Shown one piece after another: positions 13,643-46,147 of a DNA stretch of 64,000 nt. The position numbers and the translations under genes were made by a program. Origin of the DNA: a virus. Positions within the stretch are counted from its first letter, which is position 1. Each line of letters starts with the position of its first letter. Where the stretch lies: the IMG/VR virus record IMGVR_UViG_3300036791_000399, positions 1 to 64,000 of that record; one strand, written 5' to 3'. The notes under the pieces are model-generated. The model was not told the DNA's origin. It saw nothing but the letters and a program-made list of their open reading frames with translations, and made no database searches.

Positions 13643-16600
13643 TGCCCGTCCAGGATTTCGGCGACACTGACGGTTGGACCGCCGAGCCGGTCGATCATGA
13701 TCCGTTCTCTTCTGAAACGAACCCGTTCGTTGCAGGGAATGTAGGGAACGAATCGGGACCGTTTCGGAAAACCGGATTTGCTGGCCACATTGCGGCGACC
13801 TCGGACGCCAGCCATCCGCTCACGGCGCGCTCGCTGCCGTTCGCCGCCAGCCAGCCGCAGGAATCCGTTTCATCGTACGATCCATCCTGGGCCGAGCAGA
13901 TCGAGTCCGGGGTGGGTGACACCGCTGAGAGCGCGGGGATCCCCAGGGTAGGCGCGCAACGGCTCGGGTCGACGGCGCGCACTGCGGCCGAATTTACGCC
14001 GTTCGTCGGCAACGTCCTGGCGGGCAATGAGGCTTATCGCGCTCAGCAGCGTGGCGATCCCTTTGGCGCAGTGCTGCATGGCGCGATGGCGGTGCCGATC
14101 CCTGGCGCGTCAACTGAGGAAGGCGCGGCGCGTCGTTTGACGCCGCTCGGGTTCTATTCGCATGGCGCCGATGTCGCGGCGAACCTGCCGCAGGCGAAGG
14201 GAACGGCCGAGCAAATGCTCTCCCAACTGGGCAAGCGCGGCGTCAAGCCAGAGGAAATGACACGAGCCGGGGTCACCGAAGACAATCTTGCCCTGCCCTT
14301 ATTCGCCAAGCAGCCGATCACCAGAGAGGAACTGGCCGAGCGCTTCGATCAAGCCATGCCAAAGCTTCAGGAGACGGGCTACGGCCAGCAATACTATCGG
14401 AACGACGAGTATGGCGGCGGGACTAAATACGATCAGTACACGCTCCCTGGCGGCCAGAATTATCGCGAGTTGCTGCTGCATCTGCCGGAGGGGCAGGAAA
14501 CGACGCCTCGCCAGGGCTACGCCATTTTCCACGCTAGCAATGACGACCGGACCCCGGAAAGTCCTGTATTTGCCACCGAAGCAGAAGCGCGGCGCGAGCT
14601 TGAACGATATCCGCCCAGCCTCGCCTATGAGGTTAGAGATGCGCCGTTTAAGGGAGAGGGCGAGGGGGCAGGCGATTACCAAAGCTCCCATTGGGACGTC
14701 CCCAATGTCGTCGCTCACTTGCGGATGTCAGATCGGAAAGGCACAGGTGGCGAAAACCTACTGCACCTTGAAGAACTGCAAAGCGATTGGGGGCAGGAGG
14801 CGCGAAAGGAAGCGGAGGTGAATAGGGTCGCCCCTGGCCCAAGCGATACCGGCGTCCCTAACGCTCCCTTCATTGGCTCGACTCAAGGCTGGACGGATCT
14901 CGGTCTGAAGCGGGCGCTGATTGAGGCTGCGCGCGGCAATTACGATGGCTTGATTTGGACTTCGGGCGCCGATCAGGCGGCGCGCTATGACCTCTCCAAA
15001 CAGATCAGCGATTTGTCGTACAGCCCTGACTTCGGTTCTTTGCAGGGGCGCACCACGCGGGGTTATCGAGGCATCAACGAATCCAACATTCCGCCCGAGA
15101 AGCTGGCGGACTACGTCGGCGCCGAGACTGCGAAGAAGCTGCTGGGTACGCCGCTTGGCCCGCATTGGAATGCTGGGGGCGGGGCTACATTCGAGGACGG
15201 CTGGCACACGCTCTCCGGCCTCGATCTCCAGACTGGCGGCGAGGGAATGAAGGGCTACTACGACCGCCTTCTTCCGAATCGGCTCGCAACGCTGACCAAA
15301 AAGCTCGACCCCGACGCTAAGGTCGGCACGACGCGGGTTCCAGGCTTCCTGGATTTGACCCCCTTTCGTGAAGGAGGCGGCCAATATTCGGTTCAGAACC
15401 GCGCAGGCGACTTCACCGATGCGGGACCGCGCTTCAACAGCAAGGCCGAGGCGCTTGACGAGATCGCGCGGCGCAAAGCCGCCGATCCTGGCAAGGAGTT
15501 CCAGCATCTCCCGATCACGCCGCTGATGCGTGAGAAGATCCTCAAGGGCCTGCCGCAGTACAAACGGGGAGGGAGAATCGCGATGGCTGACGGCGGCGCA
15601 TCTGACTACGTGCCAACCGGTTCCGTCACTTTCGCTCATGGCTCCCTGGAGCCGGTCGACGGGGATCCTTTCCCCCCTGCGCCTCAAGTCCTGGACAGCG
15701 ACATCAATCGCGCCAAGGGCTTTCCGGAGCCGCGCTCGCCGATGCACGATCGCATCGCCGCCGCCTCCCAGGACGATCATGGCGACGCGCCAGCCACGGG
15801 CGTCATCTCGCCCGAAGCCATGTATCAGCAAACCCCGCACTCGACGGAAACGCTGGCGCACTACGCCGGCAACCCGGAGCACGCGATGCCGCTGCGGATC
15901 GGCGCCGCGGTGGGCGAAGAGGGCAAGCGCATGGGCCAAGCGCTGTGGAGCGCCGCTACGGCTCCTGGGGACGTGCTCACCGGCAAGGCGAGCATGGCGG
16001 ATCCGGAGACGCAAAATCGGGTCATAGGGCTGGCTGCGTCGTTGCCTGGAGGAGGTCCGGAGGCGGCGCTCGGCGCTCGCGGGCCGGTCGGCGCTGCTGC
16101 CAAAGCCGCAAAGCGCGCCCCAGCGGAGCGCGAGCTTAACACCTGGAACGCAGAGACTGGCCAATGGGAGGGCCCAAAACCAAAGATGAACCCGCCGGAG
16201 GGCGTGACTTACCCGCCGCTGTTCAACCTCGACCCAGAGGTGATGAACAAGGTGCCGGATGTCCCCCAGTTCGACTTGCCGCGCTATGACCCGCCGCGCG
16301 GCGTCTCGGAGCGGATGCGCGACTTGGTGACCAATCCGGATGTCCGGAAGCAAATGATCCAGTTGGTCCGCAACGGGATGCAGACCGTTGGGCTGAGTTG
16401 GTACAATACTGGCCAGCTACGCGCCATGTTCTTGAAGGAACTGGGTGACACTGAGGGGCAGCAGGCTTTTGAGAAGTACATGAATCTCGTGTCAGCCACG
16501 AGTCCTGAGAACAAGATCCCGCAGAACATCAGAACAGCTAGCCATTTCTATGAGAGAGACGCGCAAGGCGTGCCGCCGCCGGAACGAGGCGATCCAATTG

Positions 16601-17298
16601 CGCAGCCCTACGGCTCTAAGGCGCAGAAGCTTCACCAGCAAAACGTGAAGAACGTCCTAACCGAAGGCTATGACGTCCTGCAAAATCCGAAGCCGCCGTC
16701 TTTCGTTCAGAACCTGATGGGTAATTACGCCCCTGGCACGATGGACCGGCACGCCTTCAAGCTCCCGGCGATGCTGTCTCGTGATCCGCGCTTCCTGGAG
16801 ACGTCGTTCACGCCGGAGAAAGGCGCGGCGCCGGTGCGCCCCCAAGAGATGTATCGAAACGGGAAGCTGACGATTGACGATGCGGTCAATCAGCCGACCA
16901 TGTGGGCGGGTATGCCGAACAAGAACGAATATGCCGCGCTTGAGGGCTACTACAAATCGATCGCCGATGAACTCGGGATCACGCCAGCCCAGGTGCAGGC
17001 GTCGGCCTGGGTGGGCGGCGGACACGTCACGGGGCTGGCCTCAGCCGCTGACGAGACGTTCCTGCATTCTTTCCAGGGGAGAGTCTTCAACACTGCGCAC
17101 CATACCGGGCAGACGCCCGCGGAAGTGGTCAGGAAGATGATTCGCGGCGAGCAGCCTTTGTTGGCGGGCGGGCCGGGAATGGCACCAGTTCTCCCGCAGG
17201 GTCAGGCTCGGAAAGAAGCTCAAACTTCGACGGCTGGGGCGGGAGCTTTGCCTCCGCAACCATCTGATCAAGAACTTCGCGAACACCCGTTTTATTGA
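13642..17298 (+). CDS. Large two-module (polyvalent-type) virion cargo protein
   Basis: Module 1 with YTLPGG..NYRELL, SHW, EELQSDW; module 2 with WY..SATSP..PK..SF..N..MDRH..QASAW; both start with EPVDxDPF. Confidence 0.75.
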   Translation: MPVQDFGDTDGWTAEPVDHDPFSSETNPFVAGNVGNESGPFRKTGFAGHIAATSDASHPLTARSLPFAASQPQESVSSYDPSWAEQIESGVGDTAESAGIPRVGAQRLGSTARTAAEFTPFVGNVLAGNEAYRAQQRGDPFGAVLHGAMAVPIPGASTEEGAARRLTPLGFYSHGADVAANLPQAKGTAEQMLSQLGKRGVKPEEMTRAGVTEDNLALPLFAKQPITREELAERFDQAMPKLQETGYGQQYYRNDEYGGGTKYDQYTLPGGQNYRELLLHLPEGQETTPRQGYAIFHASNDDRTPESPVFATEAEARRELERYPPSLAYEVRDAPFKGEGEGAGDYQSSHWDVPNVVAHLRMSDRKGTGGENLLHLEELQSDWGQEARKEAEVNRVAPGPSDTGVPNAPFIGSTQGWTDLGLKRALIEAARGNYDGLIWTSGADQAARYDLSKQISDLSYSPDFGSLQGRTTRGYRGINESNIPPEKLADYVGAETAKKLLGTPLGPHWNAGGGATFEDGWHTLSGLDLQTGGEGMKGYYDRLLPNRLATLTKKLDPDAKVGTTRVPGFLDLTPFREGGGQYSVQNRAGDFTDAGPRFNSKAEALDEIARRKAADPGKEFQHLPITPLMREKILKGLPQYKRGGRIAMADGGASDYVPTGSVTFAHGSLEPVDGDPFPPAPQVLDSDINRAKGFPEPRSPMHDRIAAASQDDHGDAPATGVISPEAMYQQTPHSTETLAHYAGNPEHAMPLRIGAAVGEEGKRMGQALWSAATAPGDVLTGKASMADPETQNRVIGLAASLPGGGPEAALGARGPVGAAAKAAKRAPAERELNTWNAETGQWEGPKPKMNPPEGVTYPPLFNLDPEVMNKVPDVPQFDLPRYDPPRGVSERMRDLVTNPDVRKQMIQLVRNGMQTVGLSWYNTGQLRAMFLKELGDTEGQQAFEKYMNLVSATSPENKIPQNIRTASHFYERDAQGVPPPERGDPIAQPYGSKAQKLHQQNVKNVLTEGYDVLQNPKPPSFVQNLMGNYAPGTMDRHAFKLPAMLSRDPRFLETSFTPEKGAAPVRPQEMYRNGKLTIDDAVNQPTMWAGMPNKNEYAALEGYYKSIADELGITPAQVQASAWVGGGHVTGLASAADETFLHSFQGRVFNTAHHTGQTPAEVVRKMIRGEQPLLAGGPGMAPVLPQGQARKEAQTSTAGAGALPPQPSDQELREHPFY

Positions 17299-18499: not shown

Positions 18500-19393
18500 A
18501 TGCCAGCTAGCCTCACGCCCAAAGATCATACCTCCGCCGTCCTCAAGCGCATGAACCTCGCCGGGTCGATTCCCGGTAATCTCGACCGGAATAACGATGC
18601 TCAAGCGGACAACTACGGTCTAGCCTCCGCCCGCTCGTCCGACGCTTCCAGTTTTAAACTCACCGGAGCCCCGAAATCGCCTCACATGGGGCGCCCTGGC
18701 AGGCAGGCTGGCGGCCGGATCTCAGGCGATCTTGTCCGCACCCGGCGCACTCCGCGAGAAACCGCCGCCGATATCGCGGACGAAGAGAGGACTGTCCAGG
18801 CGCTCGCCAAGGACCGCGCGACCGGCGGCCGGATCGGGCGCTCGCTCGGCGGCTCGGCGACCGCCAAAGACGAATACACCCAAGCCGGGAGGACGATGAC
18901 CAACGAGGACGCCTCCGGGAAGGATCGATTTACCGGCGGAGATTTCCCTCCCAGCCACGCTAGTGGCGGCCGGGTCGGCCGCGCGCATGGCGGCCGCACC
19001 GCCAAGGGCAAGACCACAGTCAACGTGATCATCGGGGGACAAAAGGCCAATGCGCCGACGCCTCCCATGCCGCCACCGCCGATGGCCGCTCCCGGACCCG
19101 TCGGCCCGCCTCGTCCGCCGCCAGTGATGCCGCCTCCCGGTGGGCCTCCTGGCGGAATGCCGATGGGCGGCGCGCCTCCGGGCATGGCTGGCGCCTCACC
19201 TCCCGGCGCTCCGCCGATGCTCAGAGCGCGCGGGGGGAGGATCGAGGCCGAAACCGCCGGCAGGCACGACTTCGGCAAGGCCGGCGTCCACAGTTTCGGC
19301 AAGGGGGGCACTAGGGCCGGGGTCAGCCTCAAGCGCGAGTACGGATCTGGCAGCGGCCTCGGCCGCATGGAGATCGCGCGCAAGGAGAAATGA
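18500..19393 (+). CDS. Low-complexity head-region protein with multiple AxGG motifs
   Basis: RQAGGRI, RATGGRI, RSLGGS, HASGGRV, RAHGGRT, RARGGRI; KTTVNVII; Pro/Met-rich segment. Confidence 0.75.
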   Translation: MPASLTPKDHTSAVLKRMNLAGSIPGNLDRNNDAQADNYGLASARSSDASSFKLTGAPKSPHMGRPGRQAGGRISGDLVRTRRTPRETAADIADEERTVQALAKDRATGGRIGRSLGGSATAKDEYTQAGRTMTNEDASGKDRFTGGDFPPSHASGGRVGRAHGGRTAKGKTTVNVIIGGQKANAPTPPMPPPPMAAPGPVGPPRPPPVMPPPGGPPGGMPMGGAPPGMAGASPPGAPPMLRARGGRIEAETAGRHDFGKAGVHSFGKGGTRAGVSLKREYGSGSGLGRMEIARKEK

Positions 19394-19611: not shown

Positions 19612-20005
19612 GGTCGTCCATAAAGAGGATCCGCGCGACGCAATCATGCGCGACCTCGGCTCGCTTGATGGCTTTGACATTGCCGCGCAAGGCGTCCTCA
19701 TCGCCACCTACGAGCGCTCCGACGATATCAAAACCGAAGGCAACATCATCCTCCCCCATGCTCATCTGAAAGAGGATGAGTTCCAGTCGCGGGTCGGCTT
19801 GGTGGTGAAGCTCGGCCGGCGCGCCTTCGTCGATGACGAGCATATCCAGTGGCACGGCTTCCGCTGCGACGTCGGTGATTGGGTCGTCTACCGGCTGTCC
19901 GAGGGCATCAAGATGCAGATCCCCGGCCCTGGCGGGGTCAAGTGTCGCTTGATGTCCGATGCCTACCTCAAGCTCAAGGTTTCTCATCCAGATGCCGTAT
20001 TCTGA
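19592..20005 (+). CDS. GroES-like co-chaperonin
   Basis: KTEGNIILP mobile loop, VGLVVKLG, CDVGDWVVY, RLMSD. Confidence 0.8.
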   Translation: MAQVAYRVVHKEDPRDAIMRDLGSLDGFDIAAQGVLIATYERSDDIKTEGNIILPHAHLKEDEFQSRVGLVVKLGRRAFVDDEHIQWHGFRCDVGDWVVYRLSEGIKMQIPGPGGVKCRLMSDAYLKLKVSHPDAVF

Positions 20006-20007
20006 AA

Positions 20008-20538
20008 ATGGAGCATATCTCGATCCATTTCTTATCCGAGTGCTTTGAGCATCAAGGCGACGGAGTTCTGTTGTGGAAAGCGCGCCCAAGGGCGCACTTC
20101 TTCTCAGATTCATCTTGTCTGAAGTGGAACCGCAAATACGCGGGAACGATAGCGGGAATAAGCAAACAAGGTCGTGGATATCATCAGATTGGTTTGACGT
20201 ATCAAGGACAACGACGTGGTCTTTTAGTCCATCGCGTAATCTGGGCGCTGTCGAATGGCCGGTGGCCAAACGAAATCGATCATCGCAATGGTGATCGTGG
20301 CGATAATCAGATCAGTAATCTTCGCGAGGCGGATCGATCTCAACAGATGCAAAACCAGCATCCGAAGAGGCTCATTGGCGCGTCTGAGGATCGCCGAGAT
20401 GGAAGATTCCAAGCTTACATAAACTTGCGAGGAAAGCGGACGGCGCTTGGTCGATATGAGACAGCCGAGCAAGCGCACGCTGCTTATCTCGTCGCCAAAA
20501 AACGGCTGCATTCTTTCCAGCCTGAATTTCGAGATTGA
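20008..20538 (+). CDS. HNH homing endonuclease with AP2-like C-terminus
   Basis: VHRVIWAL, EIDHRNGDRGDNQISNLR, LGRYETAEQAHAAY; AT-richer DNA. Confidence 0.9.
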   Translation: MEHISIHFLSECFEHQGDGVLLWKARPRAHFFSDSSCLKWNRKYAGTIAGISKQGRGYHQIGLTYQGQRRGLLVHRVIWALSNGRWPNEIDHRNGDRGDNQISNLREADRSQQMQNQHPKRLIGASEDRRDGRFQAYINLRGKRTALGRYETAEQAHAAYLVAKKRLHSFQPEFRD

Positions 20539-26219: not shown

Positions 26220-26594
26220 ATGGCTTGGGCTTCACGCTCTGGGAGGGCCGTCACTAATCCTGAACACCCGCGGGCGTTCGCCGTCTGCGATAATTGCCGC
26301 TTTTGGTACAACCATAACAAGCTGAAATGGCAGCGCGAGTGGCAGGGCACTCAGATCATCAACAAGGGCTTCCTGGTCTGCGAGGGATGTCTCGACAAGC
26401 CCAATCCGCAGCTTAAGGCGCGGTTGATGCCGCCGGATCCGGTGCCGATCGCCAATCCGCGGCCCGAGATCAACATCTACCCGCTCGACGTCTTTCATGT
26501 TGGAGTCGAAACGACTCCGCGCGCCGCGGTCGCGACCGAAACGGACGCCTCTCGCAACTGGCCAGCCGGCGCGCCGATGGAAATTGAGGATTAA
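26220..26594 (+). CDS. Conserved CxxC-CxxC protein of the neck module
   Basis: AFAVCDNC..LVCEGCLDKPNPQL..DPVPIANPRP. Confidence 0.75.
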   Translation: MAWASRSGRAVTNPEHPRAFAVCDNCRFWYNHNKLKWQREWQGTQIINKGFLVCEGCLDKPNPQLKARLMPPDPVPIANPRPEINIYPLDVFHVGVETTPRAAVATETDASRNWPAGAPMEIED

Positions 26595-26595
26595 T

Positions 26596-26988
26596 ATGTC
26601 TAGTTGGAAACATGGACAAGCTCCTCAAGGAGCAGGGAAGCCTGAGACGAAGGAATATCGTGCGTGGCGCAATATGATACGGCGCTGCACCGAAATAAAT
26701 AACGCGAGCTATTCTTATTACGGCCCGCGAGGAATTTCGGTGTGCGAGCGCTGGCGGAATGATTTTATTACGTTTCTGGCGGATATTGGTAAGGCACCAT
26801 CTCAACAACATTGGCTCGATCGTATTAATGGTGACGGCAATTACGAGCCGGGGAATGTACGCTGGGTAACTCCGGCAGAATCTGCCCGTAACAGGCGTGG
26901 AAATTATCACACGCCAAAGAGAGAGGAAGCGGTGAAGAAGTGGCGGGAGGCTGGGCCAAGAGCGCGCCGCAGGGAGCTTCAGCCGTGA
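26596..26988 (+). CDS. HNH-type homing endonuclease
   Basis: [41 protein letters not shown]; AT-richer DNA. Confidence 0.85.
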
Positions 26989-34571: not shown

Positions 34572-37500
34572 ATGCCATTTATGACTGTGAAATTAATTCC
34601 GGGGGTCAGGGCTGAACAGACGCCATTGTTGCTACAGACTGGAATTACACAAAGCAACAACATTCGCTGGCGCGATGGCCTCGCGGAGAAAATCGGCGGC
34701 TGGAAGAAGTTCTACAACGCGGCGATTGCCGGCCCGGTGCGCGAGCTATGGACGTGGGCCGACCTGGACGGCGCCAACCATCTGGCGGCCGCGGGCGGCA
34801 ATAACGTCAATGTCATCACCGGCACTTCCCTAAGCCCGGTCGGCCCGCTCGCCGCAACTCGACATCCGAGCGGATTGGCGACGACCGCCGGGTCGCCGCT
34901 CGTTGTGGTCACCGACACCGGTTCGAACGCTAGTACTTATGAAAGCGTCACCCTGCAGACCCCCTATGCCATTAGCGGTGCAGGTGGCTTCGTCATCTAT
35001 CCAGGCAGCTATCCGATCGTCGCCGTCGCTGACGGTTCTCACTACACGATCAACATCGGCCAAAACGCTACTCTGACCGCCTCCACTGGGACGCTCTGCA
35101 CGATCAGCAGCACTCTGGGCTCGGCGACGTTCACGGTCGCTCTTCCGAACCACAATCTTGCCGTCGGGGCGAGCTTCTCGATCATTCTCCCGACTGCGGT
35201 TGGCGGAGTGGTGCTGTCAGGCTTCTATACGGTCGCTTCGGTTGTCGACTCCGGCCACTTCACCATCATGGGGCCGAACCAAGCAGTATCCGCCCAGACT
35301 TCGAACTACGGCAATCTCTCGACTACCCAACTCATCCAATGGGTCGTTAAAAGCCAACAGCCTCCGCCAACGCTTACGGCCATTGCTGCATTCGCGTCTG
35401 GTTATGCGGGCATCATGATGCCGCCGAACCCCGGCAACATTACGCCAGGGATGACGGTGTACGATGAGACAACCAACCAGACACTCGGCATCGTGCAGAG
35501 CTATGGCCCGCTGACGGCCAGTCAGACCCTGACCAATGGGTTCGCCTCTGGGGCGACGTCGATCAACATGGCGCCCAATACGAACACGCTTGGCGTGATT
35601 CCCGGCATGACCGCTACGATCAGATCATCGCTCTTGGGCACGGTTTCAGCCTATGTCGGCAGTACGCTCACCCTGGCCGCTGCTACGACTTTCCCGTCCA
35701 CGTACAGCATCACAGCCTCGGCTGCGTTTACGACCGCCTACCAGGGCATCATGGTGCCGCCCAATCCAGGCTTCGCAGCCGCAGGCTTGACTGTCACCGA
35801 CCTCACGACTGGCCACTCGCTCGGCACGGTCGCGACCTACAAGAATTACCCGATACTGACCGATCTTGTTCAGTTCGCTAATCACTCCTGGGTGATCGGC
35901 GCGACCTCTGTCGACATGACCCCCTACACCAATGCTGGCAATGGCGGCGGCGGTGATAATCCCATCATCCCCGGCATGACGATTGGTGACTCCAATGTCG
36001 GGGGAGGCACGGTCGTCCTCAGCACGGTCGGCGCCTATATCGGCCATACGCTCACCTTTGCGACTCCGGCTGCATACAGTTCTGCTACAGGCTTTGACCG
36101 GCTTGAATTTCAGACCACCGGGACGCAAAACGTCCTCGGCCTGACAGGCAACATCGCCGCCAACAGCGCCGGATCCAACGACACTCTGGGGTTCGTAGGC
36201 GCTTCGATTTCCAATGATCCGGTGACGTTCAGCAGCGGATCCAATCACGTCCTGATTTTCACTGCGCCTCTCAGCACCAGTAGCGCCGGGGCGAACGATG
36301 TCCTGGCGTTCATCGGGGCATCGGCGCCGCCGCCGACTGTGACAGCGCAAGCAGGGTTTACGACCGACTACTGGGGCATCGCGGTGCCAGCTAACCCAGG
36401 GCCCATTGTCAATGGCATGTCGGTTGTCGATCAGACCACCAATCAGTTTCTCGGCACGGTCGCAAGTTACGGGACGGTGACGAACGCTCGGCAAGTAGTG
36501 GCATGGGGAATGGCGGGCGGCGAAGGCACTCCGGTCGGCATCGGCGAGACTAGCGCGGACATGACCCCCTATACGAACCATTTTCCAACACCGATCATTC
36601 CCGGCATGACGATCGTCGACCATGATCAGAGCAAGACTGTCGGCACAGTCGTCAGCTACATCGGCAACATCCTGACCTGGACGCCTGCGATCACCTTCAC
36701 TGCAGATCCTGGCGATGAGTGGCTGTTCAGCAGCGGGACACAAAACGTCCTCGGCTTGAACACCTTTCTCGATGCCAACAGCGCCGGATCCAGCGACCTC
36801 CTGTCGTTCATTGCTCCATCAGGGCCGCCACCGGCTGGCACAACGCCGATGTCGGCCGACGATTGGTGCATGTTCAATTTCGGCAGCGTCCTTCTCATCA
36901 ATCCGCAAGACGGGCCGATCTTTCAGTATGACCCGACGAGCGGCCTTAGCACTGCGCAATTGGTTCCGAACGCGCCGGTCGCGGCGCATGGCATGTTCCT
37001 CGCCATGCCGCAGCAGATGGTGGTCGCCTACGGCGCCTCGGTCCAGGGCGTCCAGGATCCGATGCTGGTCGCTTGGTCCGACGCGGGCAACTACAACACC
37101 TGGAAGCTCGCCGTCGGCAATCAGGCCGGAACCTTTCGCTTGTCGCGCGGCTCGATGATCGTCGGCGGGATGCAGATGCCGATGCAGGCGATGCTGTGGA
37201 CCGACGTCGGTCTTTGGCTGATGACGTACATCGGTTATCCGGATGTCTGGGGGTTCTCCGAGATCGCCCAAGAGTGCGGGCTGATCGCCAAGAAGGCGGC
37301 GGGCGTGCTCGGCTCCCAGGTCTTCTGGATGGGCAGGGATAAGTTCTGGACATTCACCCAGGGCCAAGTTCAGCCGCTCCCGTGCGAGGTCTGGGACGCT
37401 GTCTTTCAAAACCTCAATACGGATCTCCTCCACCTCATTCGCTGCGGCACAGACACCGCCTTCGACGGCGTCGGATGGTTCTATCCGTCGCTCGCGACGA

Positions 37501-38081
37501 AGCAGCCAGGGGCGCTGCAGGAGAACGATTCCTTCGTCAAGTTCAACCGGGTCACCGGAGAGTGGGACTATGGAACGCCGATCGACGTCTTTGGCGACGG
37601 GAAGACCGGCGGCTCCCTGATCTCCGACTGGATCGATGCGAACGTGTACGGCAATCCGATCTCGGCGATGACCGATTCGACCGGCACGCTCTCGCAACTC
37701 ATGTGGATGGACATGGGTCAGGACGCCGATGGCGCGCCGATCGATTGGTGGTTCCGCACCGGTCTTTTCCTGCTTAGCGAGGGCGAAGATTTCCTTTTTG
37801 TCGACCGCTGCCGGCCTGACTTCAAATGGCGGAAGTTCTCAAGCCCATCGACGCCGAGCGCGCAGATCAAAATCACCTTGTACGCCTACGAGGACAGCGA
37901 CAATCCGGCGAAGCCGCCTTCCATCTATGGGCCGTTCACCGTCGCTGATGATTCGGGACCGTTTGACCCGAGAGCGCGCGGGCGTTACTTCTCGCTGAAG
38001 GTAGAAGGGAACGATCTCGGCAGCTTCGCCCGCATGGGTGCGGTGAAGTTTCGCTTTGCACCGGACGGAAGGGCCGGGTGA
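34572..38081 (+). CDS. Tail nozzle (tubular protein B / stabilisation protein-like) with large inserted repeats
   Basis: KLIPGV, RWRDG..EKIGGW, VAWSD, VFWMG, LPCEVWD, WFYPS, RARGR, C-terminal PDGR. Confidence 0.8.
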   Translation: MPFMTVKLIPGVRAEQTPLLLQTGITQSNNIRWRDGLAEKIGGWKKFYNAAIAGPVRELWTWADLDGANHLAAAGGNNVNVITGTSLSPVGPLAATRHPSGLATTAGSPLVVVTDTGSNASTYESVTLQTPYAISGAGGFVIYPGSYPIVAVADGSHYTINIGQNATLTASTGTLCTISSTLGSATFTVALPNHNLAVGASFSIILPTAVGGVVLSGFYTVASVVDSGHFTIMGPNQAVSAQTSNYGNLSTTQLIQWVVKSQQPPPTLTAIAAFASGYAGIMMPPNPGNITPGMTVYDETTNQTLGIVQSYGPLTASQTLTNGFASGATSINMAPNTNTLGVIPGMTATIRSSLLGTVSAYVGSTLTLAAATTFPSTYSITASAAFTTAYQGIMVPPNPGFAAAGLTVTDLTTGHSLGTVATYKNYPILTDLVQFANHSWVIGATSVDMTPYTNAGNGGGGDNPIIPGMTIGDSNVGGGTVVLSTVGAYIGHTLTFATPAAYSSATGFDRLEFQTTGTQNVLGLTGNIAANSAGSNDTLGFVGASISNDPVTFSSGSNHVLIFTAPLSTSSAGANDVLAFIGASAPPPTVTAQAGFTTDYWGIAVPANPGPIVNGMSVVDQTTNQFLGTVASYGTVTNARQVVAWGMAGGEGTPVGIGETSADMTPYTNHFPTPIIPGMTIVDHDQSKTVGTVVSYIGNILTWTPAITFTADPGDEWLFSSGTQNVLGLNTFLDANSAGSSDLLSFIAPSGPPPAGTTPMSADDWCMFNFGSVLLINPQDGPIFQYDPTSGLSTAQLVPNAPVAAHGMFLAMPQQMVVAYGASVQGVQDPMLVAWSDAGNYNTWKLAVGNQAGTFRLSRGSMIVGGMQMPMQAMLWTDVGLWLMTYIGYPDVWGFSEIAQECGLIAKKAAGVLGSQVFWMGRDKFWTFTQGQVQPLPCEVWDAVFQNLNTDLLHLIRCGTDTAFDGVGWFYPSLATKQPGALQENDSFVKFNRVTGEWDYGTPIDVFGDGKTGGSLISDWIDANVYGNPISAMTDSTGTLSQLMWMDMGQDADGAPIDWWFRTGLFLLSEGEDFLFVDRCRPDFKWRKFSSPSTPSAQIKITLYAYEDSDNPAKPPSIYGPFTVADDSGPFDPRARGRYFSLKVEGNDLGSFARMGAVKFRFAPDGRAG

Positions 38082-38082
38082 T

Positions 38083-38310
38083 ATGGCTCCCCTATCGGGC
38101 TTAACGGGCGATCTGCAGACCGTCGTGACTGCTTTGCAGCAGTTGACGGTCAAGGTCGGCGATCTCATCAAGCAAATTTCGCTCTCGGCGCCGCCGGCAA
38201 ATATCGCCGGTCTCGTGAATGCGGCGAACGATAGCGCCGCAGCCACCGCAGGCGTGCCGGTCGCGGGCATGTACCGGAATGGCAGCGTACTCATGGTTAG
38301 AGTGACGTGA
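38083..38310 (+). CDS. Small tail-associated protein
   Basis: AANDSAAATAGVPVAGMYRNG motif. Confidence 0.65.
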   Translation: MAPLSGLTGDLQTVVTALQQLTVKVGDLIKQISLSAPPANIAGLVNAANDSAAATAGVPVAGMYRNGSVLMVRVT

Positions 38311-39041
38311 TGCCCGGTTTCAATCCAATCCCCTCCAGCATTCAGATCTCGCGGATGTTGCGCCGGCCGCCGGCTGTCGGGGGCATCGGGTTCCACTCCG
38401 GCATTAAGCAGGCGCCGTTCCCCTTAAAGCGGGCTTTAGGTGGGTCCATCCCCGACAATCCGATGACGCCGGTCATCGGCGCCATCAACACGGCGACCCC
38501 AGGGCGCGCCGACGCGCACCCGACGCACGTCCCGCCTGGAAGCTACGTCATGCCTGCCGACCTCGTCTCGATGATCGGCGAAGGCAACACCGCGGCAGGG
38601 CAGGCGATGCTCGCCAAGATGTTTCTGCCGATACAGGCTCAGTCGACGAATCCGATTGCGCAGATGCGGGGCGGCCCGCCTGGAGGCGGGGGTGCGCCTT
38701 TCGGAGCCGAGATGCCGGGATTGCGATCGAAGCCGATGGGTCCGCCACGGCCGATCGAACCGACAATCGTCGGCGAACCCAAATATCCGATCTACGCTGG
38801 GCCCGGTAAGCAGGGCCCTAACTTCGTCCAGGCGCATGGCGGCGTCGTGCAAGGCTCTCCGGACCAACCGGGCACTCCGATCAACATTAGCGGCGGCGAG
38901 TTTGTGATCCCTCCGCAGGAGGTCAAGCGTCGGGGGCGGGGGGACATCAACCGGGGGCACGAGATCCTCGACGCCTGGATGAAAGACCTCCGCCAGGAGC
39001 ACATTAAGACGCTGAAGAAGCTCCCAGGGCCAGCGACGTGA
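38307..39041 (+). CDS. Protein with duplicated AxGG...G[SE][YF]V domain
   Basis: RALGG..PGRAD..GSYVMPADLVS and QAHGG..ISGGEFVIPP. Confidence 0.75.
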   Translation: MMPGFNPIPSSIQISRMLRRPPAVGGIGFHSGIKQAPFPLKRALGGSIPDNPMTPVIGAINTATPGRADAHPTHVPPGSYVMPADLVSMIGEGNTAAGQAMLAKMFLPIQAQSTNPIAQMRGGPPGGGGAPFGAEMPGLRSKPMGPPRPIEPTIVGEPKYPIYAGPGKQGPNFVQAHGGVVQGSPDQPGTPINISGGEFVIPPQEVKRRGRGDINRGHEILDAWMKDLRQEHIKTLKKLPGPAT

Positions 39042-39589
39042 GCAAGAAGTTCAGCCACAACAATCGGCCGCCGAAACCGCCGACGGATCTCTCCCACATT
39101 CGGCTCGCTGGAGAAGCCGATGAGATGCAGATCTTCAACTTGTGCAGCCTGATGCACGCGGAGGTCGGGCTTCACCCGCTGGACTGGCCGAAGATCGCTG
39201 CCATGATCCGGCTGGCGACCATGCGAACGCGGGGGATCGTCGGCGTCATTGGCGAGCCGCACGATCTCAAGGCGGCGATCTTCATGATGATCGAGCCGGT
39301 CTGGTACAGCAGCGCTTTCGTTCTTTTGGACTACTTCACTTACGTCAGGCCTGACGCTCGCCAGAGCACCTACGCCACCGACCTCATCGCCTATGGCAAG
39401 CAGTGCGCTGACGGCCTCGGCATCGATTTTGTTTGTGGCGTATTTTCAACTGTTCGTACAGAAGCAAAGTGTAAACTCTATCGCCGCGTGATGCCGAAGG
39501 TCGGTGAGTTTTATCGCTATCAGCCGAAACCGGAGACGGCAGAGCTTAGCCATTTGTCACAAACCGCCAACCGCGTAGCCGCAGAGTAG
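39038..39589 (+). CDS. GNAT-family acyltransferase-like protein
   Basis: IRLA, WYS, FTYVRPDARQSTYA..LI; directly before the first ejection protein. Confidence 0.7.
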   Translation: MSKKFSHNNRPPKPPTDLSHIRLAGEADEMQIFNLCSLMHAEVGLHPLDWPKIAAMIRLATMRTRGIVGVIGEPHDLKAAIFMMIEPVWYSSAFVLLDYFTYVRPDARQSTYATDLIAYGKQCADGLGIDFVCGVFSTVRTEAKCKLYRRVMPKVGEFYRYQPKPETAELSHLSQTANRVAAE

Positions 39590-39601: not shown

Positions 39602-42600
39602 ATGGGCTCGGTATGCGGAGGCAGCAGCAACCAAACAACGACCAATTCGAGTTCGCCTCCGCCGCAGACGCAGGCTGACTACCAGGGCTTAATCAATCGC
39701 GCGACCGCGGTCGCGAACACGCCCTACACCCCCTATCCCGGCGAGCAGGTCGCCCCGCTCAGCAATCAGACAAACACCGGCCTCGCCAACCTCAACCAGT
39801 ACGCCTACGCCGCTCAGCCCTATCTGCAGAAAGCGGGCCAGATGACGCAGGGCGCTGCGGCGCCGGTCACTCCGCAGGCCTTCTCCGGCTCGGCGGTCGG
39901 CCAATTTGAGAACCCGTTCACGAGCGACGTGATTCAGGCGACGCAGAACGAGTTCAACAATCAGAACGCTCAGCAGGCGCAATTCCTCAATAGCCAGAAC
40001 ATTGGCGCGGGCGCATTCGGCGGTGATCGGGCGGGCCTGTCGCAGGCGATCTTGGCCGGTCAACAACAGACAGCCCAGGCCCCGGTAATCGCAGGCTTGA
40101 ATCAGGCGAACTACAATCAGGCGCTGGCGGAGTTCAACAATCAGCAGCAGACCGGCCTCGGCGCGCAGGAGTTCAACAATCAGCAACTCGGCCAGATGGC
40201 CAATCAGTACGGCCAGATCGGCCAGGGGATACAGACTGGAGGCCTGCAGGGCGCAACCGGCCAAATCACCGGAGGCATGGTCCCGCAGGGCGAACAGCAA
40301 GCGATCGACACCGCGCTGCAGAACAACTGGAACCTCGGGCAGGCTTACCCGTATCAGTCGACCGGATTCCTCGGCAACATCATCGAGGGGATCGGAAGCC
40401 AGCAGGGTGGGGTCGGGCAGACGACGTCGCCGGGGCCGAGCGGGCTCAGCCAAATCCTGGGCGCCGCCACCGCGGGCACGGGCGCGCTGTCGAACCTGTT
40501 CGGCTCTGCCGCTGGGGGCACGAGCGCGGCGGCCGGGATCGGCACCGCGCTCTCTTCCCTCTTCGGCTTCTCGGACGAGCGCCTGAAAGAGAACATCGTC
40601 CCGGTCGGCAAGACCTTCGACGGTCAGACGATCCATAAGTACAACTTCAAAGGCGACCCCAGGACCCAGATCGGGTTGCTCGCGCAGGAGGTCGAGCGGC
40701 GCCATCCTCATGCCGTCGCCGAGGGCCTGGGCGGCCTGAAGGGCGTCAACTACGACGCGGCGACGAGAGAGTCCGAGCGCGCCGGTTTCGCGGACGGCGG
40801 CGTTTCCCCCGGCTCGATCTTCGACCTCGGCGTCGGCAAGCAGGCGTCTCCGGCCGGCGCGCTGGCGTTGATGGGTGTTCCTGGCGCGAGCGCGGGGACG
40901 GGTCGGTTCGGCGCCGGCTCCCTGTCCATGACGCCAGGGGGCACGCTCTTCGGCCGCGGCGAAGCGCCGGTATCCACCGGAGGCAATGGACCGTCGCCTT
41001 CCAATCCCCTCCAGGGCGGCCCCTGGCAGCATCCCGCTGCGCCGTATACCGCCCCGCAGCCAGGGCCGATGCTAGCGCCTCGGTCCGGAGTGCAAATGCA
41101 AGCGCCAGCGGGGCTGGCCCATGGCGGTCGCGCAGGTTTCGACATTGGCGGTCCGACCGGGCTCGGCAATGTTGACATGACCAACATTCCGAACACGCCG
41201 TTCGTCGATTTCTCGACCCCGTTTGCGATTGCCCAGGGCACCGGGGTTCCAGGCCCCAACGCCGGTATTGCGAATATCGAGTTCTCCTCGGCCAGTGAGG
41301 CGGGAGGCGGGAACAAAGTCTCCGGGCAGACGATCGGCACGTCGAACCTCGCGCCGTCGCAGATCAATCTCTCGGGCGCCCCTCCTGGCACGACCTTCGC
41401 GCCGATCGACTATCAGAACCCAGGCAGCGACTTTCAGACCGCAGGCGCAGAGGCGAGCCTCGGCCCGCATTATTTCACCGTCGGCAAGAATGGTGAATTG
41501 GTCTACGGCGGCGAAGGCACGGGCCCGAGCGGCAGCGTCAATCAGGGGGAGTTGCTCCCTCGTCCCGGCGGGAACCTGCCTACCGACACGCCGAAGACTG
41601 AGAACGCGCCGCCCGTCGCCGCGCCTGCGGCTGGTCCTGCTGCTCCTGCGGCTGGTCCCGCTACGCCCGTTATCCCAGCGGGGGGTCGCTCAACGGGGTA
41701 CAGCGCGAGGGCCATAGCCAACAACCCGTGGCTGGCGAATATGTCTATTCCGGGTGATGCGTTGACTGCTCCCCAGGCCCATGGCGGCCCTGGCGCAGGC
41801 GCGAGCGGCGGTGGGGCGGGCGCGGGCGCGTGGACTGGCGGCAGAATGCCCTTCCAAGGCGGTGGAGGCCTCGATGACCCCCGCTACAGCTTCTATACGC
41901 CGACGACCGGCAACGCGCGCGGGGCGACCTATCATCCGCCAATCCCGACGCCGCCCACTCCGCAACCGATATATACGCCGCGTCATGTCGTGCGTCAGCG
42001 TGCGCCGGTCGCTCCGCCGCCGCCCAGGAACTACCCATTGCCTCCGCCTCGGCCGCAGGATCCGCCGCCGCCGCCCACAGTGGCCGCCGCTCCGATGCCG
42101 CTGCCAAGGCTGGATGATTTTCCGCCTCCGCACCCGGACTTCACCGCCCCCAGGTCGGTCGTCGACCCGATGTCTGGAACGAATGCGGGAATGAACCCGC
42201 CACAGGCTGGCGGGAGCATCTTCCATTCCCTCTTGCCCGCCATGCAGGGTCCGCGTGGCTACACGGCGTCGCCGCCGTCCGACCCCGATCCAGATAGGGC
42301 CCGAGGGATCGATATCGCCAGAGGCCTCCTGGACAACCGTCCAGGCTTTTGGAACTCGGGCGGCGTGATGGGCCAGATGCCGCTCGCGGGCGCCACCGGT
42401 TACACGCCGCAGGGCCAGGGCGTGACTGGCTTTGACAGCCAGGGCGCGGCGATGGGCTCGGGCAGCGTGGCGAAGAAGGCTGCGGGCTTCGACGGTCTGT
42501 TCGGCTCCGGTCTGCGCCAGGGCGGTCGCGTGAGCTTCGCGGACGGCGGTCTGAGCGGGCTCGGGATAGATCCGTCTGGGGTGCCGGTCATCCAACCGAT

Positions 42601-45600
42601 CCCCTTCGATATTCTCAAGGGTGTCCAGCCGTTGCCGGTGGGCAAGGGGCCGCCGCATCCGACCGATCCGAAGCAGCAGCAGTCGTCCAGCGACGCAGCG
42701 AATACCGGCGGGGCGCTCGGCAAGAGCATCAGTTCGCTCGCGAACGCTTTCAAGGGCAGCGGCAGCGGCGACGATGCCCTCGACGCCGCCATTCCGTCAG
42801 ATCTCTCCGGCGTCGACATGAGTGGCGATTTTGCCGCGTTGCCTGACGACACCTTCGACTTTGGCCTTGGCGGGATCGTACGACCGCATTTTGACGATGG
42901 CGGCGGCTCTACCGGTGATGGCGGCGACGGCGATGGCGGCTCTACCGGGTTCGGCGGCGGCGACACCGGATTTGGCGGCGACACCGGATTTGGCGGGATG
43001 GGGATGAGTGTCGGTTATGCTGGTTCTCCGACCGGTCCTGGCATCGGGTCTGACGCCGTGGCGGGGGGAACGGCGGGCGATACTGGCGGCGTCGCAGCAG
43101 GGGCCGGTCCTCACGGCACCGCAGGTGCTGTCGGTTACGGCGGCGGGAGCGTCGGCTATGGCGGGACGCATGGCGGCGGGACGGCAGCGGGCAGCGCAGG
43201 AAGCGCAGGTGCTGGTGCGGCTGGCCCAGGCGGGGCGGGCCCTGGCGGAGGCACGGGCGGCGGCGGACATGGAGTGGGTGCAAGTGCAGGAGCGCCAGGA
43301 AACGTCGTAGCAGGCGATTCGCCTCGCGCAATATCTACGGCACTCGAAAATGCGCTGCATCAACAGGCGCTAGACGCGCTTTACGGGATGCAGCACAGCA
43401 GCCCAATCGGCAACCCGCTTACGGAATTTGGAGTGCAGAGGGCCGGTGGGGTTAGCACAACTGGCGTTCCAGGCCTCAATTCACAGTCAATCGCTGATCT
43501 CTCTGGACAGAATGGTCCAGCTGCACAAGTTGCGGCTCGTCAGGCAAGGGCGGGGGTCGGTGCCCCTAGCCCAGGGCTGAGCCCTGCTGTCATTTCGGCG
43601 ATAAATAACGGAATGCGTACAAACGCATTTAACACTCGTCCGACAGGAGCGGAAAGCGTAAGCACGGCCGGTTTGAGCGCGCCCAGGGCGGCTCCGGCTG
43701 TGAGCACGTCGGTGAGCCCGTCAGTAAGTAAGCCGCCTAGCTTTGAGATTGCGCCGACTTATTCGTTTGCGCCGCGAGGCACGCCTGTTTCCTCGCCCGC
43801 GAATACGCCGACAGCGTTCGCGCCCCGAAACACGCCGACGGTCATCGCTAATCCTGGCGACACCACCCCAGGCCTCGGAGGGCTGACCACAGACCCTGGA
43901 AGCACCCAGCCAGCCGGGGGACGGATACCGGGCCTCGCCGTCGCAGGCGACCAGTATGCGCAGCAGGTGGGGCATGGCGGCCGCTGGGGCGGCGGCAGAA
44001 TTTCCTTCGGCCTCGGAGGAATTGCACGATCTGGTTATGCTGATGGCGGCACGCTTCTCGGTCCAGGTCCGCCCGCGCCTCCGGAGCCCCCGGAGCCTGC
44101 TCCGACCGCTCCTATTGCTCCTGCCGCGCCCCTGGCGGAGGCCGCGCCTGCGCCCGCATCGTCCGCATCGTCCGCATCTCCGTTCGTCAAGCCGACGCGC
44201 GAGCAGGTGCTCGCCTACAATGAGTCGATCGCGGCGAAGCACGGGAATAACCCGGACGTCGTGCGCAAGGTGCTCAGCGGCGAAATGGGGGGGAAGGATC
44301 CCTATCAGGTCGGCGACGCCGGATCGAGTTTCGGCCCCTGGCAACTGCACGAGGGTGGTATCAACCCGGCGATGAACCACCCCGGCATGGGCGACGAGTA
44401 TAAGGCCGCGACCGGGCACGATCCGAACGATCCGCATTACTGGCAGGAACAGAGCGACTTCGCGCAGTCGAAGATGGCGGAGCGGGGCCTGCAGCCCTGG
44501 GCGACGACGGCTGGCAAGCTCGGCCTTGGCCGCTATGCCAACTTGAACGCCGATGCGCCCTCCGGCGGTGCGCAGCCCGTCCAGGCGGAACAGGCGCAGC
44601 AGCAGACGCAGGCAGTGATGGACGACGCCGAGCGGGCTCCGGACAGGCGGATGATCCAGCCGAGCGTTGGCGACGCCTTGATGGCGGCCGGTTTCGCGAT
44701 GATGGCGGGCACCTCGCCGCACGCCATGGTCAACATAGGCCAGGGCGCGCTGGAGGGCATGAAGTACTACCAGAACCAGCGACAACTCGATCGCGAGTGG
44801 ATGAAGAACCAAGCTGAGATCGACAACTATGGCAGCGAGGCGCGCTATCGTGATGCCCAGACCTCTATCGCCACCCAGAACCTGAACATTGAAATGTACA
44901 AGGCCAAGCTCGGCCAGTGGAACGTCCAGTATCAGGGCTGGCTGGCGGCTGGCGGTCATGGCGATCCGCCTCCGATGCCAGCGTTGCCGACGTCGTTCGG
45001 CGGGTCGGCGACCACTAAGTCAGCGGCTGCGGCTGCGCCTGCCCCAGCGCCAGACTCAGCAGCGGCTCCGGCTCCGTCACCCACTGCGGCCACTCCCGCT
45101 CCGACCTCGACTGGCCCTGGCCCGCTTGTAGCCCCTAAGAAGGCCGCTGGAGCCCCTCCAGTTGCCGCGCCTACCGCGACACCCCCGAAGGCGGCAACGC
45201 CAGCCCCTGCGGCTCCTGCGGCTCCTGCTGACACGACTGCGGCTGCTGGTGCGCCATCCGGTGCGCCTGGGCCGACTGATCCGTTCTGGAAGAGCGTCCC
45301 TGCCGATCAGAACCCCTACGAACTGATCCGCTTGGCGAAGCTCTATCGGGCCGGGGCGGGCGTTAACCCCGAGAACGCGAAGACGGCGGACGAGTATGAA
45401 GCCCGCGCCCATTCCATCTGGGACAGCGGCATGGCTGGCGGCGTCCAGATCCCCGGCGTCTCGCAGCAAAAGGCGACGACGAAGTATAATGAGGAGATCG
45501 CGGGCGAGACTGGCAAGGAAGACGCCAAGCTCCCGGCGCAGATGGATAAGCGGGCTGAGATGGACACTCAGCTAAAGGAAATGCAGCACCTCATGCTGAC

Positions 45601-46147
45601 TTTCCAGCCGGAGCATTACGCCGAGCAAAAGGCGGAGATCGCCGCCGCGGTAAATTCGATATTCCCCGGCGCCGTCCCGCAGGGCGCGCTCGACAACGCG
45701 GCAAGCACGCAGCGCTTCCTCAAGGATCAGATGAACGCGGTGATGAACAAGGTTCAGTCGATGGGCGGAAGAGTCCTGGTCAGCGAGATCGAGACGTTCA
45801 AGCGAGCGGTGGCTTCGCCGAACATGCAGCCAGCGGCGGCCGCGGCGATCCTCGCGCAGATGCGCGGCCTGATGAAGTGGCAAGACCAGCACGATAATGA
45901 TTACCTCGATTGGCGCGACCAGAACGCCGCCGCGCCGAAGTCGCGGTTTGAAAGGCAGTGGCTCAAGGATCCGAAGAACAGCCCCGACACCTACATCACG
46001 AACGCGCGGCATAACTTCCCCTACCAGGGGCAGGTGATCCCGCCGAACGCTGAAGGGCGCGAGAAGGGCCAAGCCTACATGACGCCGAAGGGCCCACGAG
46101 TCTGGAACGGAACGGGCTGGGATCCGTTCGCAGCCCCGGCGGACTGA
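39602..46147 (+). CDS. Large ejection (DNA-transfer) polyprotein with internal S74 chaperone and lysozyme-like domains
   Basis: Q/N-rich N-terminus (FENPF, AGAFGGDR); SDERLKENI..GLLAQEVE at about 40571-40760; E..GDAGSSFGPWQL at about 44200-44540. Confidence 0.8.
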   Translation: MGSVCGGSSNQTTTNSSSPPPQTQADYQGLINRATAVANTPYTPYPGEQVAPLSNQTNTGLANLNQYAYAAQPYLQKAGQMTQGAAAPVTPQAFSGSAVGQFENPFTSDVIQATQNEFNNQNAQQAQFLNSQNIGAGAFGGDRAGLSQAILAGQQQTAQAPVIAGLNQANYNQALAEFNNQQQTGLGAQEFNNQQLGQMANQYGQIGQGIQTGGLQGATGQITGGMVPQGEQQAIDTALQNNWNLGQAYPYQSTGFLGNIIEGIGSQQGGVGQTTSPGPSGLSQILGAATAGTGALSNLFGSAAGGTSAAAGIGTALSSLFGFSDERLKENIVPVGKTFDGQTIHKYNFKGDPRTQIGLLAQEVERRHPHAVAEGLGGLKGVNYDAATRESERAGFADGGVSPGSIFDLGVGKQASPAGALALMGVPGASAGTGRFGAGSLSMTPGGTLFGRGEAPVSTGGNGPSPSNPLQGGPWQHPAAPYTAPQPGPMLAPRSGVQMQAPAGLAHGGRAGFDIGGPTGLGNVDMTNIPNTPFVDFSTPFAIAQGTGVPGPNAGIANIEFSSASEAGGGNKVSGQTIGTSNLAPSQINLSGAPPGTTFAPIDYQNPGSDFQTAGAEASLGPHYFTVGKNGELVYGGEGTGPSGSVNQGELLPRPGGNLPTDTPKTENAPPVAAPAAGPAAPAAGPATPVIPAGGRSTGYSARAIANNPWLANMSIPGDALTAPQAHGGPGAGASGGGAGAGAWTGGRMPFQGGGGLDDPRYSFYTPTTGNARGATYHPPIPTPPTPQPIYTPRHVVRQRAPVAPPPPRNYPLPPPRPQDPPPPPTVAAAPMPLPRLDDFPPPHPDFTAPRSVVDPMSGTNAGMNPPQAGGSIFHSLLPAMQGPRGYTASPPSDPDPDRARGIDIARGLLDNRPGFWNSGGVMGQMPLAGATGYTPQGQGVTGFDSQGAAMGSGSVAKKAAGFDGLFGSGLRQGGRVSFADGGLSGLGIDPSGVPVIQPIPFDILKGVQPLPVGKGPPHPTDPKQQQSSSDAANTGGALGKSISSLANAFKGSGSGDDALDAAIPSDLSGVDMSGDFAALPDDTFDFGLGGIVRPHFDDGGGSTGDGGDGDGGSTGFGGGDTGFGGDTGFGGMGMSVGYAGSPTGPGIGSDAVAGGTAGDTGGVAAGAGPHGTAGAVGYGGGSVGYGGTHGGGTAAGSAGSAGAGAAGPGGAGPGGGTGGGGHGVGASAGAPGNVVAGDSPRAISTALENALHQQALDALYGMQHSSPIGNPLTEFGVQRAGGVSTTGVPGLNSQSIADLSGQNGPAAQVAARQARAGVGAPSPGLSPAVISAINNGMRTNAFNTRPTGAESVSTAGLSAPRAAPAVSTSVSPSVSKPPSFEIAPTYSFAPRGTPVSSPANTPTAFAPRNTPTVIANPGDTTPGLGGLTTDPGSTQPAGGRIPGLAVAGDQYAQQVGHGGRWGGGRISFGLGGIARSGYADGGTLLGPGPPAPPEPPEPAPTAPIAPAAPLAEAAPAPASSASSASPFVKPTREQVLAYNESIAAKHGNNPDVVRKVLSGEMGGKDPYQVGDAGSSFGPWQLHEGGINPAMNHPGMGDEYKAATGHDPNDPHYWQEQSDFAQSKMAERGLQPWATTAGKLGLGRYANLNADAPSGGAQPVQAEQAQQQTQAVMDDAERAPDRRMIQPSVGDALMAAGFAMMAGTSPHAMVNIGQGALEGMKYYQNQRQLDREWMKNQAEIDNYGSEARYRDAQTSIATQNLNIEMYKAKLGQWNVQYQGWLAAGGHGDPPPMPALPTSFGGSATTKSAAAAAPAPAPDSAAAPAPSPTAATPAPTSTGPGPLVAPKKAAGAPPVAAPTATPPKAATPAPAAPAAPADTTAAAGAPSGAPGPTDPFWKSVPADQNPYELIRLAKLYRAGAGVNPENAKTADEYEARAHSIWDSGMAGGVQIPGVSQQKATTKYNEEIAGETGKEDAKLPAQMDKRAEMDTQLKEMQHLMLTFQPEHYAEQKAEIAAAVNSIFPGAVPQGALDNAASTQRFLKDQMNAVMNKVQSMGGRVLVSEIETFKRAVASPNMQPAAAAAILAQMRGLMKWQDQHDNDYLDWRDQNAAAPKSRFERQWLKDPKNSPDTYITNARHNFPYQGQVIPPNAEGREKGQAYMTPKGPRVWNGTGWDPFAAPAD

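Follow-up and report, generated by a model that had tools for sequence, protein, structure and literature searches.

The C-terminal ends of tape-measure proteins (TMPs) lie in the lumen of the tail tip and are the first to leave (PMC10038345, PMC12617516). In lambda the TMP, gpH, is a 92.3-kDa protein that loses ~14 kDa on maturation; according to the same work neither the cut site nor the responsible enzyme has been identified, and cryo-EM does not resolve residues 690-817 (PMC12617516). In T5 the maturation cut of the TMP, pb2, has been placed 'after R1127', producing pb2* and a 92-aa fragment, pb2C (PMC10038345). The sequence context, VPR|AEGGMMYPGVSYQMGEHGTEVVTP, puts this cut directly before AEGG, a match to the motif AxGG. 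To our knowledge, it is the only precisely mapped maturation cut of a TMP. For gp46, the TMP of JBD30, a hook consisting of a short hairpin and a pair of helices is predicted at residues 1022-1066 and proposed to hold the protein inside the baseplate (PMC11445458). A different group of proteins with relevance here is the polyvalent cargo proteins, whose InPase and other domains are treated as likely virion-packaged and injected as far as the main text of the survey goes (Iyer et al., PMC5512222).

A stand-alone gene between nozzle and ejection genes

The window (the whole stretch of DNA analyzed) covers the initial 64 kb of an IMG/VR record of 74,075 bp that is rated 99% complete. The complement of terminase, portal, cargo protein, head genes, fibres, nozzle and ejection protein identifies its source as a short-tailed phage. 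The sequence-only reading had described the gene under study (hereafter the target) as a separate gene in a phage that lacks a tape measure and as lying close before an AxGG-bearing ejection protein. Both descriptions hold: the 244-aa product stands alone, all ORFs of the 74-kb genome include no TMP and no second unit-bearing gene, and the target is followed by a GNAT gene and then by an ejection protein with AxGG joints. The target, the parts of its product and the other relevant genes are as follows (A1 and A2, alignments, the latter of the family; AF2, AlphaFold2):

13642-17298, portal-adjacent cargo protein, 1,218 aa (DUF7178 / phrog_3842)
18500-19393, basic, Pro/Gly-rich, probably disordered head-module protein, 297 aa, with repeated xA/xGGR[IV] motifs, four of which fit AxGG; no family match
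34572..38081, + strand, tail nozzle or 'stabilization' protein, 1,169 aa (phrog_3287, E 1.7e-51; syntenic in 81 loci)
38056..38310, + strand, small upstream ORF, 84 aa, probably shorter; its stop overlaps the target start, and it is kept in the closest loci
38307..38432, + strand, target: N-terminal basic leader, 42 aa (FNPIPSSIQISRML...), pI 12 (alignment A1)
38433..38444, + strand, target: AxGG motif 1, A43-L-G-G46 (RALGG, aa 42-46); G46 invariant in A2, pLDDT <50
38478..38636, + strand, target: unit 1, with G58, GRxD (66-69), hairpin HVPPGSYVMP, helix ADLVSMI, GEGNT loop and helix AAGQAMLAKMF (invariant columns, AF2)
38637..38831, + strand, target: Pro/Gly-rich linker between the units, low-confidence in the model; variable, 5 to about 270 aa in relatives
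38832..38843, + strand, target: AxGG motif 2, A176-H-G-G179 (QAHGG, aa 175-179), which aligns with FATGG of lambda gpH
38871..39020, + strand, target: unit 2, with hairpin PINISGGEFVIP, helix PQEVKRR, GRGD loop and a long helix carrying invariant H218 and D222 (invariant columns, AF2)
39021..39038, + strand, target: C-terminal tail L-P-G-P-x-K/T, at the extreme end of the protein
39038..39589, + strand, GNAT-type acetyltransferase (phrog_1249; synteny); its start overlaps the target stop
39602..46147, + strand, ejection protein, 2,181 aa (N-terminal phrog_4287; Peptidase_S74, aa 324-368; [FY]AxGG joints at aa 397, 980 and 1480)

The target ORF (38307-39041, + strand, stop codon included) is open throughout, as first observed. 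Initiation at the GTG at 38307 would give a product of 244 aa and initiation at the ATG at 38310 one of 243 aa, of which the ATG is the likelier start. This ATG shares one base with the TGA of the upstream 84-aa ORF, and the target in turn ends in a TGA that overlaps with the start codon, GTG, of the GNAT gene; the overlaps suggest translational coupling of the three genes. The order tail protein, nozzle, (small ORF), target, GNAT and ejection protein recurs in MW202675 and 80 IMG/VR loci, even where identity falls to 33%, and the target occupies the same place in 81/81 related contigs, with the nozzle before it and the GNAT and ejection genes after. Related nozzle genes occur with no target in the cultured phages phiM5, HTVC023P, CRP-902 and Octadecabacter DB2, and phiM5 has an unrelated ORF of 120 aa in its place. 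Among the cultured relatives searched, none combines the gene with a particle proteome, phiM5 having the proteome and lacking the gene. The GNAT gene is a fixed member of the nozzle-to-ejection block, even where the target is absent (L163, L164 and L165). The structural module also holds two HNH endonuclease genes, one among the head genes (19879-20538) and one ahead of the fibres (26497-26988).

PHROGs detect no similarity of the target to named ejection protein families (T7 gp14-16 or P22 gp7/20/16 type), the gene position alone being analogous. A location between nozzle and ejection genes, with coupled translation, would also suit a non-structural assembly factor that helps to load ejection proteins or assemble the nozzle and is absent from the finished particle, a role that we take to be analogous to that of P22 gp14. 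However, such a factor would stay behind, which is hard to reconcile with the injected-type cargo fused to the module at the same locus in relatives (see below), and the TMP counterparts of the module are virion components. We therefore regard an assembly factor as improbable.

Two homologous units related to tape-measure ends

Both copies of the unit quoted in the sequence-only reading are present, RALGG with GSYVMP (aa 78-83) in unit 1 and QAHGG with GGEFVIP (aa 196-202) in unit 2. An HMM of unit 1 (92 homologues) matches unit 2 of the target (E 3.5e-6) and an HMM of unit 2 matches unit 1 (E 1.8e-7); judged by these profiles, the two units are homologous and result from duplication, not chance. 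In alignments A1 and A2 the first conserved block comprises G58, G66-R67-x-D69, G78-x-Y80-V81-x-P83-A84, N94 and G98, and the second G196-G197-E198-x-V200, G210-x-G212, G217-H218 and D222, each with a GG ahead of it (G45-G46 and G178-G179). The invariant polar residues among these, R67, D69 and N94 in unit 1 and E198, H218 and D222 in unit 2, exceed what a pure adaptor would seem to need.

AlphaFold2, run on a 92-sequence alignment, models the target with a pLDDT of 72 and a pTM of 0.57, both units being confident. The predicted secondary structure of unit 1 (strands 71-75 and 80-82; helices 84-90 and 95-106) is the same as that of unit 2 (strands 190-194 and 199-201; helices 203-209 and 214-238), and a minimal relative of 150 aa (P0195) is predicted to have the same plan (pLDDT 84, pTM 0.75). 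The AxGG segments have pLDDT <50 in the target model, and in the P0195 model the second GG leads directly into the first strand, which makes AxGG the N-terminal edge of the unit in the models. The earlier proposal that the domain folds around an AxGG strand is not borne out, given the low confidence of these segments in the target and the GG merely preceding the strand in P0195.

Structure comparisons return no described fold for either model. Foldseek finds no solved fold with E <1 for the two AF2 models, in VIA-align comparisons with 48,161 chains neither model, one of which has a pLDDT of 84, exceeds a Z of 3.2, and four structure searches on the two models produce no PDB match at Z ≥5. Only uncharacterised phage proteins are matched in BFVD. 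KH domains recur in the result rows, but at E >1 and Z ~2.5, and this identity was distrusted. A likeness of 'G-x-V-I-P-x-x-V-x-x-x-G' to SpoVT/AbrB hairpins found no backing in any search and was dropped. In the ESM Atlas a crAss cargo-protein lead scored 0.82, under the trust level, and the remaining matches are unnamed viral clusters only.

The sequence-only reading held that a FAxGG...GEFV unit closes siphovirus TMPs, with FATGG..HRGEFV in lambda gpH as its example. The gpH sequence reads KFHFATGGFTGTGGKYEPAGIVHRGEFVFTKEATSRIGVGNLYRLMRGYATGG, that is FATGG...HRGEFV, and a tblastn search with gpH 722-792 matched 1,046 phage records, so the segment is conserved as claimed. Among the 40 records listed of the 1,046, every match falls in an annotated TMP or in an unannotated or 'hypothetical' stretch, and the hosts of phages with matches to the TMP unit include Arthrobacter, Acinetobacter, Halomonas and Xanthomonas. 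Pfam has no family over the C-terminal unit region of gpH, and no paper on the motif turned up when its letters were searched for in full-text literature.

A homologue search with gpH 722-792 gave 120 identical Escherichia coli TMPs and hence no diverse profile, and an alignment of nine diverse TMP units from nine phage records (A3) was built instead. Its invariant columns are F, GG, T, G, G, V, H, E, V, G, G and Y. Alignment of the family (A2) with these TMP units by hhalign gives a probability of 77.7% (E 1.9e-5) over 40 columns, placing AxGG on FAxGG and GGEFV on H-x-GEFV, and unit 2 alone matches the TMP unit with a probability of 89% (E 2e-6). In contrast, 60 column-shuffled controls reach at most 8% and a score of 18, versus the 32.8 observed. 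The profile check against TMP C-termini that had been called for thus comes out in favor of the proposed kinship, at 78-89% against at most 8% for shuffled controls. By these profile comparisons, the link is real, and the target carries, as a separate protein and in two copies, the module found at the end of lambda-type TMPs. BLASTP of the target against gpH finds nothing, profiles alone revealing the link.

Unit 2 aligns with HRGEFVFTKEATSRIGVGNLYR of gpH, and it resembles the TMP units in spacing, A176 lying 20-21 residues before G196/G197 compared with a family median of 18 and ~17-20 in TMP units; unit 1 has a spacing of 35 and Ser in place of Glu. Residues ~728-785 of gpH, which are part of the cleaved fragment gpHC, and their counterparts in T1-like, Webervirus, Arthrobacter, Acinetobacter, Halomonas and Xanthomonas phage TMPs have in common with the target the AxGG, the G-E-F-V strand, the helix and the G-x-G-[DN]-[IL] turn. 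Unlike these TMP ends, which terminate a long coiled-coil ruler, the target is a free-standing protein of 244 aa, carries two units instead of one, adds H218 and D222 (unit 2) and an LPGPxK end, and belongs to a short-tailed phage. It is not embedded near a TMP C-terminus, and no long-tail gene module surrounds it. A further difference concerns H25 and E28 (H-x-G-E), invariant in 9/9 TMP units: the His is missing from the target, where unit 2 reads I-S-G-G-E and unit 1 P-P-G-S, the family consensus being A/S-G-G-E. This absent His is the difference that matters for function.

The HMM of target unit 2 also matches residues 1019-1056 of JBD30 gp46 (FASGGHIKGPGTGTSDSIPILASNDEFM...; E about 1e-4), within the region of the TMP hook. 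The hook has FASGG ahead of it and a secondary structure equal to the AF2 plan of the target units, but it is itself a prediction (PMC11445458) and, unlike the target, belongs to a TMP.

Distribution and fused cargo

A word-indexed search identified 128 close homologues of the target, and exhaustive phmmer found 1,838 representatives of clusters at 50% identity with E ≤1e-3, of which 1,243 reach E ≤1e-10. Nearly all family members come from metagenomic phage contigs of 60-80 kb, and the gene is present in only one of 50,697 deposited phage records. Pfam has no family for the protein or the family profile, PHROGs give a single marginal match (phrog_11341, function unassigned, E 4.6e-4), and a PDB sequence search with the family profile finds no match. 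Unit 1 has a strict AxGG ahead of it in 84% of members and unit 2 in 75%; for a plain GG the figures are 98% and 94%, respectively. Of 269 family proteins, 254 have a C-terminal L[PK][GPAS]P among their last 10 residues, where it invariably closes the chain.

The slot of the target is filled in some relatives by proteins of 448, 467, 611, 730 or 1,391 aa, the last 150-200 residues of which are the two-unit module. In all ~60 long relatives the module sits at the extreme C-terminus, and it is the N-terminal part or the linker between the units that varies. The N-terminal domains fused in this way include InPase, ART-PolyVal, LPD23, DUF6496 and DUF7178, the last in relative P0191. The target itself has no effector-type cargo domain, just the 42-aa leader at the place where fused relatives have as much as ~1,200 aa of cargo. 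A search for loci with relative P0061 returned only N-terminal DUF6496 look-alikes that have no units. ART-PolyVal and LPD23 bear in Pfam the polyvalent-protein names of the survey cited above and are absent from its main text (PMC5512222). The target's relatives thus share InPase, ART-PolyVal and LPD23 fusions with the polyvalent cargo proteins, whereas the target has no cargo domain and the module is not among the Pfam domains that stem from that work.

Single units also close proteins of the ejection clusters of other podoviruses. HMM scans find a C-terminal unit in a 304-aa protein of Synechococcus phage MinM2 (E 4e-13), in a 462-aa protein of phage 023Pt_psg01, and in a 792-aa ejection-cluster protein of phage DSL-LC04 (L160:16033-18408), which ends in a TMP-type unit (GPGTATSDSIPAMLSDGEFVF). 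The DSL-LC04 protein is annotated 'tail tape measure protein', though this phage has a podovirus-type nozzle.

AxGG joints and the role of the module

Over all the phage's proteins, plain AxGG shows no enrichment (27 sites versus about 23 expected), whereas the stricter [RKHFYQ]AxGG, defined post hoc, is seen 12 times versus 4.2 expected, an about 3-fold excess reached by 1 of 500 shuffles. RAxGGR, likewise defined post hoc, occurs four times versus 0.0 expected (three in the 297-aa head protein and one in the portal tail). The [RKHFYQ]AxGG sites cluster in the 297-aa head-module protein, the portal tail and the ejection protein. In the last of these, [FY]xxGG directly follows the S74 domain in nearly all 47 relatives (strict xAxGG in 31/47), at the point where the phiM5 gene ends. 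The S74 chaperone domain (aa 324-388 region) follows a Q/N-rich N-terminal part of 320 aa. Since the phiM5 homologue ends just past this domain, auto-cleavage at the S74 serine would, by analogy, split the giant protein into a needle-like trimer and a C-terminal fragment of 1,850 aa.

These joints are central to the proposal made in the sequence-only reading, that the target reads or cuts AxGG tags in trans. Its substrates would be the AxGG joints that lack units, in the ejection protein, the portal tail, the cargo protein and the basic 297-aa protein of the head. The about 3-fold excess of [RKHFYQ]AxGG in structural proteins, the [FY]xxGG just past the S74 domain in nearly all 47 relatives, and the lack of any other recognized protease in the head/tail module are consistent with it. 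Co-occurrence, suggested earlier as a check, gives a partial answer: unit-bearing podoviruses tend to have joints and unit-less ones few, but the comparison covers about ten phages of few independent lineages. The enriched motif was defined post hoc while plain AxGG is unenriched, the module is fused to cargo as an end-piece, which would be odd for an enzyme acting on other proteins, and TMP phages hold joints and units in one chain with no need for a separate reader. The protease idea also finds no backing in peptidase profiles (Pfam, PHROGs), PDB sequences or structure searches (Z at most 3.2), none of which gives a peptidase family or fold, and the H-x-G-E His is absent. We consider a trans-acting reader or protease very unlikely. 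Instead, the AxGG motifs appear to be the N-terminal boundaries of units and not separate tags for the domain to read.

By analogy with T5, AxGG is likely a processing site. In T5 pb2 the AxGG at the cut is followed by G-x-E-V-V-x-P, and the C-terminal fragment lies in the tail-tip lumen and is expelled first, but hhalign of the T5 segment with the unit gives a probability of 0.2%, which is not significant, and the parallel with T5 is confined to the motif. For gpH, a hypothetical cut at F733|A734, placed by analogy with R1127|A1128 of T5, would give computed fragments of 79.8 and 12.5 kDa, mature gpH* having a mass of 79 kDa. Such a cut would fit the reported ~14-kDa loss.

These parallels could be taken further, each unit catalyzing or structurally forcing a cut before its own AxGG and so freeing the leader or cargo after assembly or ejection, a reading that partly overlaps with the one we prefer. 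It is encouraged by the position of the T5 cut directly before AEGG (PMC10038345), by the fit of the gpH fragments to the mass loss (PMC12617516), by the motif and unit being always adjacent in cis, and by the invariant Glu in the hairpin strand. However, both target units lack the H-x-G-E His, some family members have no GG ahead of a unit, the structure searches matched no known autoproteolytic fold, and the Ala is not always preceded by the same residue (F, R, Q or K). Self-cleavage is on these grounds unlikely. A bolder combination, to which we assign a low probability, is that the unit represents a new Gly-Gly-directed processing device of long- and short-tailed phages, cutting in cis at x|AxGG in TMPs and released here as a two-unit processor that would act in trans on joints of the portal, head-cargo and ejection polyproteins. 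Catalysis is neither demonstrated nor excluded by any of the results.

T5 pb2 also raises the possibility of a domain directed at the cell wall that binds or hydrolyzes peptidoglycan, as claimed for the motif region of pb2C. The pb2 region from AEGG onward holds a 'metallopeptidase motif' and is reported to be muralytic (PMC10038345), a segment that by eye resembles an M23-type peptidase comes after the unit of an Arthrobacter TMP, and an Atlas cluster of 602-aa relatives carries LysM. Lambda virions, however, have the unit yet no wall-degrading activity (PMC12617516), the H-x-x-E that accompanies the reported muralytic activity of pb2C is absent from the target, and the structure searches gave no hydrolase fold. 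A cell-wall role for the target therefore seems highly improbable.

The explanation that we favor, and to which we give about an even chance, is that the target is an ejected virion protein serving as a docking or joint module at the C-terminus, which corresponds in podoviruses to the end-piece of the TMP and has in AxGG both its own boundary and a probable site of cutting. It would be a small basic virion-associated protein in the tail-tip or ejection apparatus of this short-tailed lineage, made up of the leader, the tail and two copies of the module that long-tailed phages possess once, at the C-terminal end of the TMP that meets the tail tip and is cut. The two units would pack into one compact domain which, with the C-terminal tail, may dock the protein inside the nozzle or the ejection-protein assembly, its putative partners. 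An N-terminal fusion partner (none here, and enzyme cargo of up to about 1,200 aa in relatives) would thereby enter the virion and exit through the tail, and the AxGG motifs may be processed at the unit boundaries, by analogy with the cut of T5 pb2 before AEGG. The duplication, the kinship with TMP units, the constant place of the gene, the position of the module at the C-terminus and the cargo fusions are observed, and virion location, docking and cleavage are proposed from them.

The module at the cut end of TMPs is very widespread, yet it has had no name, fold or function, and the mechanism and site of the lambda gpH cut have been open for 50 years (PMC12617516). A confidently folding protein of 150-250 aa is far more tractable than an 850-aa tape measure for the study of docking, x|AxGG cleavage and cargo delivery. 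The occurrence of a free-standing, duplicated module in phages with no tape measure indicates that the module is not a feature of the ruler. As the stand-alone gene is always beside nozzle and ejection genes, and often has enzyme cargo, the module looks like general machinery for holding proteins in the tail tip and sending them into the host.
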